Shown here one piece after another: positions 5,002 through 6,535 of a stretch of DNA of 64,000 nucleotides. Source of the DNA: Oscillospiraceae bacterium (lineage in GTDB: Bacteria; Bacillota; Clostridia; Oscillospirales; Oscillospiraceae); contig WQUY01000002.1 in the NCBI GenBank assembly GCA_009781855.1, forward strand, positions 10,017 to 74,016. The letters are read 5' to 3'. Both the position numbers and the translations under genes were made by a program. The notes below the pieces were generated by a model that was not told where the DNA came from, searched no databases, and worked only from the letters and a program-made list of their open reading frames with translations. The first letter of the stretch is position 1. Every line of letters starts with the position of its first letter.

Positions 5002-5544
5002 ATGACAAGAATGAAGAAAAAGTATCAGGAAGAGGCCATTCCCGCCTTGATGAAGAAGTTTGAGTACAAGAGCGTTATGGAAGTTCCTAAGGTTGAGAAG
5101 ATCATAGTTAATGTTGGCTGTGGCGATGCGCGTGATAATGCAAAAGCAATAGACGCTGTCGTCAAGGACATCTCAGCCATAACAGGCCAGAAGGCTGTTG
5201 TGACAAAGGCAAGAAAATCAGTTGCCAACTTCAAACTTCGTGAGGGAATGCCGGTCGGCGTGAAAGTGACACTGCGGCAAAACAGAATGTGGGAGTTTTT
5301 AGACAGGCTATACAATGTAGCGCTGCCCCGCGTCCGTGACTTCAGAGGCATAAGTGCCAACTCCTTTGACGGAAGAGGCAATTATGCACTGGGACTAAAA
5401 GAACAGCTCGTTTTCCCCGAAATAGACTACGATAAGATTGAGAAAATTCGCGGTATGGATATAGTAATATGTACGACTGCGAAAACAGACGAGGAAGCCC
5501 GCGAGTTACTGACATGTATGGGCGCCCCGTTCATCCAATCGTAG
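5002..5544 (+). CDS. rplE: 50S ribosomal protein L5
   Basis: 180 aa, ...[16 protein letters not shown]...[17 protein letters not shown]... Confidence 0.96.
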
Positions 5545-5557
5545 GGAGGAGACAATT

Positions 5558-5743
5558 ATGGCAAAAAAATCTATGATTCTAAAGCAGCAGAGGGAGCCAA
5601 AGTTCTCATCCCGCCGCTATAACCGATGCAAAATCTGCGGTCGCCCGCACGCGTATCTGCGTGATTATGGTGTGTGCCGTATATGCTTCCGTAATTTGGC
5701 CTATAAAGGACAAATTCCCGGAGTGCGCAAAGCCTCGTGGTAA
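5558..5743 (+). CDS. rpsZ: 30S ribosomal protein S14 type Z (zinc form)
   Basis: 61 aa, CxxC...CxxC (CKICGRP...CRICFR), ends ...GVRKASW*. Confidence 0.96.
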
Positions 5744-6023
5744 ATTTTTCCGTTATGCTTCACCTCACGGACTTGCAGTATAGAGATACAGCGTCGTCCG
5801 CTCGGTTTAGCCTAACAAAAAAATTCTCTCACGAGGGAACCTCGTGGTAAGCTTCCGTTATGCTTCACCTCACGGACTTGCAGTATAGAGATACAGCGTC
5901 GTCCGCTCGGTTTGGCTTAACAAAAAATTTCTCTCACGAGGGAACCTCGTGGTAAGCTTCTGTTATGCTTCACCTTTCGGTTTAGCCTAACAAAAATCTC
6001 CCTTTCGAGGGGGGAACCGCGTG
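5733..6023 (+). repeat. Tandem direct repeat: 107 + 105 + ~79 bp (third copy has an internal ~38-bp deletion); each unit starts with CCTCGTGGTAA
   Basis: Unit starts at 5733, 5840 and 5945. Copies 1 and 2 are near-identical over ~105 nt. The first unit begins with the last 11 nt of rpsZ including its stop. Each unit junction forms the hairpin CACGAGG-GAA-CCTCGTG. Confidence 0.9.
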
Positions 6024-6139
6024 AAAAACTAATACAGTCTACGCCGAAAGGCTTCGGGTGCACTGAAGAACCTCGGCGAGAAAGCGGAAGCGCCATGTTC
6101 AGATTGAGCGCATTCCGCGACGACGAAGGAGGAGAGCAC

Positions 6140-6535
6140 ATGCAAATAACAGACCCCATTGCCGATATGCTCACGCGTATCAGAAATGCGAGCGCTGCTA
6201 AGCACGCCACAGTCGATATTCCCGCTTCCAACATGAAAAAAGCCATTGCGGAAATATTGCTGCAAGAGGGTTATATCAAAAACTTTCAGCTAATAAATGA
6301 TGGTATTCAAGGTGTTATTAAAGTGACGCTGAAATACAACGGGACTGAAAAGGCCATTGCTGGTCTGCGTAGAGTCTCGAAACCCGGCTTGCGTGTTTAC
6401 GCAGGTGCGGACGAACTACCTTATGTTCTCAGAGGACTGGGAGTTGCCATTATATCAACATCCAAGGGCGTAATGACCGATAAGAGAGCCAGAACGGCGA
6501 ACATCGGTGGCGAAGTCCTTGCATTTGTCTGGTAA
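6140..6535 (+). CDS. rpsH: 30S ribosomal protein S8
   Basis: ORF 6095..6535 trimmed to ATG 6140 ([17 protein letters not shown]) behind GAAGGAGGAG. Confidence 0.94.

Follow-up and report, generated by a model that had tools for sequence, protein, structure and literature searches.

Two modules in the rpsZ-rpsH spacer

The spacer between rpsZ and rpsH was analyzed in the spc operon of a 64,000-nucleotide (nt) stretch of an Oscillospiraceae genome (GenBank assembly GCA_009781855.1, contig WQUY01000002.1, positions 10,017 to 74,016), hereafter called the window. rpsZ, which encodes a zinc-type S14 of 61 amino acids (aa), is located at 5558..5743 and rpsH, which encodes S8 of 131 aa, at 6140..6535, both on the plus strand (list of open reading frames (ORFs) and tblastn, for rpsZ against relatives and together with the fold), and the ORF list gives a gap of 396 nt. 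This spacer consists of two independent and unrelated modules: module B (5733-6029), an array of 2.7 tandem copies of a long hairpin of ~82 nt that begins inside the last codons of rpsZ, and module A (6039-6134), a candidate S8-binding leader of rpsH. The original prediction, made from the letters of the window, had read the entire gap as three tandem repeats, explained either by neutral slippage or by a cis-acting RNA possibly connected with S8. Its coordinates for the end of rpsZ (5743), the start of rpsH (6140) and the starts of the units (5733, 5840 and 5945) were right according to the ORF list and a motif search, and its two alternatives are each partly supported, for different layers of the spacer.

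The final codons and stop codon of rpsZ (CCTCGTGGTAA, 5733-5743) are found again at 5840 and at 5945, and in the first unit they supply the 5′ arm of an outer helix. Unit 1 (5733..5839, plus strand, 107 nt) matched R1, our covariance model of the module B hairpin, with 97.3 bits, and is composed of the 5′ arm (5733-5739), the long core hairpin (5744-5825) and the 3′ arm CACGAGG (5830-5836); in its minimum free energy (MFE) structure, at -40.2 kcal/mol, the tail pairs with the end of rpsZ. Unit 2 (5840..5944, plus strand, 105 nt, R1 match of 88 bits) has the same parts at 5840-5846, 5849-5930 and 5935-5941. It is 96-97% identical to unit 1, as had been noticed from the letters: Tandem Repeats Finder (TRF) gave a period of 105 with 2.2 copies, 96% matches and a score of 428 over 5748-5975, and a repeat search found a 105-nt pair with 97% identity and a shorter third copy. 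Unit 3 (5945..6016, plus strand), recognized by a partial R1 match of 33 bits, the repeat search and motif positions, is decaying; its base is retained (5′ arm 5945-5951, core remnant 5954-6000, degenerate 3′ arm TTCGAGG 6004-6010) and the apical ~35-38 nt of the hairpin are deleted. A degenerate partial fourth leading motif follows at 6017..6029 on the plus strand (CCGCGTGAAAAAC compared with CCTCGTGGTAAGC; 79% in the repeat search, and motif position), and given this motif the order of the array is X-E-X-E-X-E-X. The internal deletion and degenerate tail ascribed to unit 3 were thus found, whereas the last ~100 nt, which had been taken for a degenerate repeat end, are the different conserved element at 6039-6134.

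The motif CACGAGG, present at 5830 and again at 5935, is exactly complementary to CCTCGTG, so that the 7-bp hairpins proposed for the junctions can form. The same motif can alternatively pair back to the 3′ end of rpsZ or the start of the unit, and in the fold this back-pairing closes a -40 kcal/mol structure surrounding the rpsZ stop codon. A search of the whole 2.4-Mb, 134-contig assembly found the repeat at this single locus and no second one, so the claimed restriction to the rpsZ-rpsH junction stands; the strong R1 matches in this genome are only the three units at rpsZ, and the rest, at 25-36 bits, come from other repeats.

That the 2.7 copies are an artefact of a short-read metagenome-assembled genome (MAG), the true locus being single-copy, is very improbable. 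The genome is a MAG of 134 contigs, the 105-nt period is near the read length, and in one relative, G022 (G and L numbers are our handles for the sequences compared, C numbers for contigs), rpsH (C9:303) and rpsZ (C15:51626) are on separate contigs, the assembly breaking inside the spacer. The three units, however, differ by substitutions, by a differing 5′ end and by an internal deletion, and are therefore not collapsed or expanded identical copies; moreover, independent assemblies of other species contain 1.5-3 tandem copies (G003, G004, G013, G015 and L075).

A candidate S8 leader precedes rpsH

Module A (6039..6134, plus strand) is the sole match in the genome, at 45.4 bits, to a covariance model of this module (R2), and is further supported by covariation and by its fold. 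It consists, in order, of helix P1 (6041-6047/6073-6079), an internal loop, helix P2 (6052-6055/6065-6068) with a variable apex, a linker, the hairpin P3 (6084-6093/6108-6118), GUAACUCUAA and the Shine-Dalgarno (SD) sequence AGGAGG (6127-6132). In the core, AAGG (6048-6051) faces AACC (6069-6072), with 6069-6070 (AA) bulged out and 6071-6072 (CC) paired to the GG. Among 29 diverse sequences, 91% of the alignment cells at paired positions were able to pair, compared with 29-46% when the partners were slid, and double changes were observed in 14 of the 18 pairs. Little or no variation was seen in the pairs A11-U57, G12-C56 and G13-C55, in the upstream A9 and in the bulge A preceding CC. The two bulged bases are UA or AA, matching the 16S rRNA of E. 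coli or of Firmicutes, and the pair beside it alternates accordingly, U-A with the UA bulge and C-G with the AA bulge, giving the core consensus 5′-A.AGG(U/C)C ... G(A/G)(U/A)ACCU-3′. Many of these leaders have an apical P2 sub-hairpin, CCAAUC..G.AUUGG, which is absent from the window copy (6052-6068); the P3 of the window copy (6084-6118) is unusually long.

R2 found exactly one match per carrier genome, always ending a few bases upstream of rpsH. Within the family, 21 of 37 genomes and 15 of 19 genera had a match, compared with none of 24 genomes of other families; of 100 fetched loci, 70 had one. No Rfam family corresponded to either module: cmscan of 5400-6400 at E≤10 returned merely two chance matches, both inside rpsZ.

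The core of module A carries the determinants that define the S8 site, namely the A595-(A596-U644) triple, G597-C643 with N641, and the invariant bulged A642 (PMC4176348). For comparison, helix 21 was taken from another member of the Oscillospiraceae (G026), as this genome, G003 and G004 are without a 16S gene; the G026 helix 21, GCAAGUCAG...UUGAAACUG, resembles the module A core. The invariant internal loop probably mimics the S8 site of 16S helix 21, and S8 would bind it and repress rpsH and the downstream genes. Sequence, structure, position and distribution all lend good support to S8 autoregulation through such a mimic, and we regard module A as a candidate leader. The S8 link made in the original prediction therefore applies to this separate element at 6039-6134 and not to the repeats, since nothing was found that links the latter to S8 or S14 binding.

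Several observations weigh against this assignment. Most copies, the window's included, have the register AAGG(U/C)C / G(A/G)(U/A)ACCU, which is one G-C pair beyond helix 21 (AAGUC / GAUACU), and the exact AAGUC / GAUAC(C/U) core is found in a minority (e.g. L020, L102 and L111). The core (6048-6072) is ~55 nt 5′ of the SD (6127-6132) with P3 between them, so that it does not overlap the ribosome-binding site; because of this distance, the mechanism cannot be simple occlusion as at rplE. The module is absent from 16 of the 37 family genomes and hence not essential. Finally, the module A model did not retrieve helix 21 from the rRNA operon of G026, although this is uninformative because the model was scored end to end including P3.

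An S8 operator has been described at the start of rplE in Gammaproteobacteria (PMC3616713), whereas spc regulation in B. subtilis and other species outside that class is stated as unknown in a 2024 review (PMC10931766), and a 2020 survey of new ribosomal leaders contains no S8 or rpsH leader (PMC7247131). Module A is thus a candidate for a previously undescribed S8 leader before rpsH.

The spacer in related genomes

We extracted the rpsZ-rpsH spacer from 108 related genomes, among them Flintibacter, Pseudoflavonifractor, Intestinimonas, Oscillibacter and Flavonifractor, in addition to the locus of the window. Its length ranged from 12 to 737 nt overall; it was usually 90-740 nt in Oscillospiraceae and 12-60 nt in the other families of the order. 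A long spacer is therefore the norm in Oscillospiraceae, and the expectation that these two genes are ordinarily separated by a short gap holds for the other families of the order and fails in this one. In G025, ~900 nt separate rpsZ from rpsH. The closest relative by rpsH, G018 (L006; 87% DNA identity), has a spacer of 22 nt (CTCTAACAAGGAGGATAGCAAC), which retains just the CTCTAA-SD end of module A, modules A and B being gone in a single clean deletion. A close relative lacking the insert had been named in the original prediction as an observation that would speak against an essential regulatory role, and the comparison of spacers provides it.

Six relatives (L040, L045, L054, L057, L068 and L072), with Flintibacter porci, Pseudoflavonifractor phocaeensis and Muriventricola aceti among them, have a terminator-like hairpin and, downstream of it, a near-consensus sigma-70 promoter between the end of rpsZ and module A; examples of the promoter are TTGCAA-17-TACAAT and TTGACA-17-TAGAAT. 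In these relatives, the rpsZ-rpsH junction seems to divide the spc operon into two transcription units, and in this arrangement rpsH would head its own transcription unit with module A as the 5′ leader, while module B, where present, would mark the 3′ end of the upstream unit. Module B is kept beside the internal terminator and promoter in L040, L045, L057, L068 and L072, which indicates that it belongs to the 3′ end of rpsZ and not to the initiation of rpsH. A promoter and terminator scan of the window spacer (5744-6139), with both strands covered for terminator-like sites, found no site, and unlike in the relatives with an internal promoter, rpsH of the window is presumably co-transcribed with rpsZ.

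Module B is a conserved hairpin behind the rpsZ stop codon

The core of each unit is an imperfect hairpin of ~82 nt. Fourteen units from 10 genomes were aligned by sequence with MAFFT, and for this alignment RNAalifold predicted the long hairpin with compensatory changes in 14 of 24 pairs. For the full structure of the module, 85.5% of the cells were paired, compared with 35-42% when the 3′ partners were slid, and 21 of the 34 pairs were altered on both sides; the observed values were reached by 0 of 500 shuffles. The loop and bulge nucleotides are conserved as well (CUUGC.GUA ... UAC.GC..CG).

R1 located the hairpin 0-4 nt 3′ of the rpsZ stop codon, on the sense strand and in 1-3 tandem copies, in at least 22 other Oscillospiraceae loci, a set covering eight further congeneric species, two other genera of a 60-genome sample and a dozen additional MAGs or isolates (G002, G003, G004, G005, G011, G013, G015, G023 and G033; L040, L043, L044, L048, L050, L057 (Flintibacter porci), L066, L068, L069, L071, L072 and L075). 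The module is single-copy in G002, G005, G011, G023, G033 and others; multiple copies are found in G013 (1.5), G004 and L075 (2), G015 (~2.5) and G003 (3), so that the number ranges from 0 to 3 across species. Every duplicated unit again carries the rpsZ 3′ end of its own species. Units were 91% identical within G000, 89-93% within G003 and 84% within G004, compared with 71-84% between G000 and G004; because units of one genome are more alike than units of different genomes, the arrays are either recurrent or homogenized. In G000, G013 and G015, the additional copies show truncation or decay.

The unit is therefore a conserved, covarying hairpin fixed at the same position in many genera and not a random slippage product, and neutral slippage, as originally proposed, does not account for it. 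The tandem multiplication, in contrast, does look like neutral, recurrent duplication, considering the copy numbers of 0 to 3, the likeness of units within a genome and their decay. Since unit 3 is decaying and the closest relative is without the whole insert, the amplification in the window looks recent and dispensable.

Two other readings of the repeats were discarded. Small ORFs within them (37 aa, 5737-5850; 31 aa, 5860-5955) were rejected because substitutions between species track base-pairing and not codons. An attC-like reading (GTTATGC...GCCTAAC) was dropped because the order of the boxes is reversed and the boxes are not kept in the dispersed relatives described below.

The outer helix follows the codons of rpsZ

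The 14 nt located 3′ of the module B core complement the end of the cognate rpsZ and track its synonymous differences. The pairs are CCTCGTG/CACGAGG in this genome, CCTCATG/CATGAGG in G013, ATCCTG/CAGGAT in L072, TTGGTGAG/CTCACCAA in L040 and TTGGTAAA/TTTACCAA in L050; in G015, which has an AGT serine codon, the helix is GGCA..TTGG/CCAA.GCC. The mean energy of the duplex between tail and rpsZ was -9.8 kcal/mol for cognate and -6.8 kcal/mol for non-cognate combinations (permutation p ~5e-5). The pairing of the unit end with the 3′ end of rpsZ, which had been noticed in the window, is accordingly real and species-specific, and the comparison points to a systematic recruitment of the last rpsZ codons and stop into the base of the predicted structure.

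A hairpin of the same family was also observed at another junction of the operon, in a related MAG (L096:1933-2014), where it lies 34 nt past the rpsH stop codon at the rpsH-rplF junction with the complementary flanks CCTTCGG / CCGAAG. The module is thus not strictly tied to rpsZ.

Dispersed relatives of module B

R1 gave 10-13 dispersed matches of ~82 nt each (30-47 bits) in the congeners G004, G006, G013 and G014, and none or one in most other carriers. These copies have the basal and apical motifs of module B (TTTTTCCG..A..CTTCG, CTTG.A.TA, GCG, CGCCT.G....CGAAAAAAT), and all those examined are intergenic. In G014, the homologous core (~82 nt) occupies the center of a 165-bp repeat of at least 13 copies (e.g. 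L122-L129), with perfect 20-bp terminal inverted repeats (AGGCAACCTCCAAAAACCCT / AGGGTTTTTGGAGGTTGCCT) and no clear target-site duplications. In G013, the outer arms vary among the dispersed copies and yet remain complementary. Orientation relative to the neighbouring genes is mixed, although the strand call is unreliable for near-palindromes. By these comparisons, the core of module B is homologous to dispersed hairpin repeats of the congeners that resemble miniature inverted-repeat transposable elements (MITEs). Rfam searches with the dispersed relatives returned only plant and animal microRNA-precursor models, far under the cut-offs, as generic long hairpins would.

This genome has only weak relatives of module B, chiefly a ~140-nt repeat of at least eight copies whose inner ~82 nt match R1 at 25-30 bits (C8:2680-2796, C58:1-120, C61:10139-10280, C79:4081-4222, C1:79880-79989, C84:7174-7282, C94:5286-5393 and C13:6306-6401). 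Several of these copies are at contig ends, and one is between an AbrB-like gene and a response-regulator gene.

We considered whether module B might be an operator that mimics an rRNA site and is bound by a ribosomal protein of the operon (S14, L5 or S8), tandem copies raising avidity. It does lie inside the spc operon directly behind rpsZ, its loop and bulge nucleotides are conserved, and its pairing with the rpsZ stop region covaries. On the other hand, MITE-like relatives with homologous cores at unrelated intergenic sites argue against an operator specific for ribosomal proteins, the copy number is unconstrained and the element often lost, and the same spacer contains a much better, separate mimic of the S8 site in module A. 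With filters off, R1 found nothing significant in the 16S-23S-5S operon of G026 (best match 12.4 bits, E 0.095), which is weak evidence against rRNA mimicry. Such an operator is unlikely.

As the main rival to an RNA-level role, module B may be a palindromic DNA element, selfish or neutral and either MITE-like or similar to repetitive extragenic palindromes (REPs), that resides in a permissive spacer; with an SD and a leader of its own, rpsH would leave this spacer free to take up insertions. The complementarity of the arms, including that to rpsZ codons, would then be kept by quasi-palindrome template switching, and the tandem copies would have arisen by slippage. The dispersed cores in the four congeners, the 165-bp unit with terminal inverted repeats, the lack of orientation bias, the highly variable spacer length, the patchy presence and the truncated copies are all consistent with this. 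However, the copy at rpsZ is the sole genomic copy in most carriers (G002, G003, G005 and G023, and this genome save for the weak matches), its position and strand agree across many genera, where compensatory changes are seen, and its outer 5′ arm is host coding sequence without an element terminus. In addition, a search for the Y1 transposase (PF01797) gave no matches in G000, G004, G013 and G014, and only G006 was positive among the genomes searched. With these points on its two sides, we consider the neutral element a possible but less probable explanation. A system of REPs and REP-associated tyrosine transposases (RAYTs) is likewise not supported, given the transposase result and the few copies in this genome.

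Proposed roles of the two modules

With middling confidence, we favor an explanation in which module B is a family-conserved hairpin behind a stop codon with a generic, REP-like role, tandemly duplicated in this genome, and module A is an S8 leader. The hairpin starts right behind the rpsZ stop codon and is closed by the outer helix of the last rpsZ codons and the complementary tail. The whole unit, with 5′ arm, hairpin and tail, has been duplicated to 2.7 copies in the window; the 11-nt direct repeats CCTCGTGGTAA on either side of each unit probably served as substrates for unequal recombination or replication slippage, with help from the palindromic junction CACGAGG-GAA-CCTCGTG. The extra copies look recent and redundant and are already decaying, and the array would have no function beyond that of a single unit. 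On the mRNA, module B would be a stable 3′-proximal structure behind the rpsZ stop codon that blocks 3′-to-5′ decay, marks a processing point, or both, thereby uncoupling the fate of the rplN-rpsZ segment from that of the S8-controlled rpsH-distal segment; module A would be the specific regulator, S8 binding repressing rpsH and the genes downstream. By analogy, the single unit most likely acts generically, by REP-like protection of the mRNA 3′ end. At the level of sequence comparison, what characterizes module B is its structure, covariation, fixed position, variable copy number, dispensability in close relatives and homology to the MITE-like hairpins of congeners.

Some features of module B speak against a role on the mRNA. 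It is missing in the closest relative and in many congeners and is thus not essential. Template-switch (quasi-palindrome) mutation is able to preserve the complementarity of a long DNA palindrome such as this one even if RNA is not under selection, and on the sense strand G.U pairs outnumber A.C pairs only weakly (25 compared with 13), a bias that is not significant, as the neutral-element explanation would have it. An intrinsic terminator was rejected because an A-run instead of a U-tract is found 3′ of the module and 5744-6139 contains no terminator-like site.

A bolder reading, which we put forward only tentatively and consider rather improbable, is that Oscillospiraceae split the spc operon post-transcriptionally, module B sealing and protecting rplN-rpsZ or being cleaved, and module A letting S8 repress the rpsH-distal genes only. 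If this were true, a Gram-positive lineage would for the first time have a described feedback circuit for spc, with an operator placed ahead of the gene of the repressor itself and acting from some distance to the SD, and MITE-like repeats would have carried the hairpin module of this two-part device to intergenic sites elsewhere.

The tandem array itself is probably an ordinary, recent duplication of a REP/MITE-like hairpin with little functional consequence. The chief value of the locus is the modular anatomy of its spacer, above all the candidate S8 leader before rpsH. Module A offers a concrete, testable, single-copy covarying helix-21-like leader in a large family that includes cultured gut bacteria (isolates of Flintibacter, Pseudoflavonifractor and Intestinimonas; Oscillibacter is represented here only by MAGs). 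Module B is an example of a structured hairpin held at a single operon junction in different genera, with an outer helix that has co-evolved with codons of the gene before it, and it is a useful case for telling RNA-level selection from palindrome-maintaining mutation.

Comparison with known systems

The REPs of enterobacteria and the bacterial interspersed mosaic elements (BIMEs) are intercistronic or post-stop palindromes that stabilize the upstream mRNA, and REPs within ~15 nt of a stop codon also reduce upstream translation. Module B resembles them as an imperfect intra-operon palindrome immediately past a stop codon, with variable and dispensable tandem copies and with related copies dispersed intergenically in congeners. 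It differs in being far longer (an 82-nt core in a unit of ~105 nt) and confined to a single locus in this genome, in having units in direct tandem and not in alternating inversion, in using host coding sequence as outer arm, and in lacking a RAYT/Y1 transposase in the carrier genomes searched.

As with MITEs, the core is homologous to the center of an intergenic repeat, the 165-bp repeat of G014 with its 20-bp terminal inverted repeats and at least 13 copies. Unlike a MITE, the copy at rpsZ is not bounded by element termini, its outer arm being the 3′ end of the gene, and across subfamilies the central hairpin is conserved and the outer arms are variable, which is the reverse of a typical MITE. 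The hairpins cleaved by RNase III (the R sites of T7 early mRNA, rplJL-rpoBC and rpsO-pnp) are an analogy only, no sequence relationship to module B having been found; the similarity is that module B is a long, imperfect hairpin between cistrons, ~30 bp in length and with internal loops that are conserved, and that its cleavage would leave the upstream message with a 3′ hairpin.

The candidate leader in module A differs from the S8 operator of the E. coli spc operon, which mimics 16S helix 21 at the start of rplE, in its position directly 5′ of rpsH, ~55 nt before the SD and not over the rplE start, in the extra G-C pair of most copies (AAGG/..ACCU), in the added conserved hairpin P3 and GUAACUCUAA tract, and in its limitation to Oscillospiraceae without an Rfam match. 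In common with that operator, it has a helix broken by an asymmetric internal loop with two or three A's, an A-U pair, an invariant G-C pair and a bulged N-A with an invariant A, and it is located in the same operon, where it is putatively bound by the operon's own S8.

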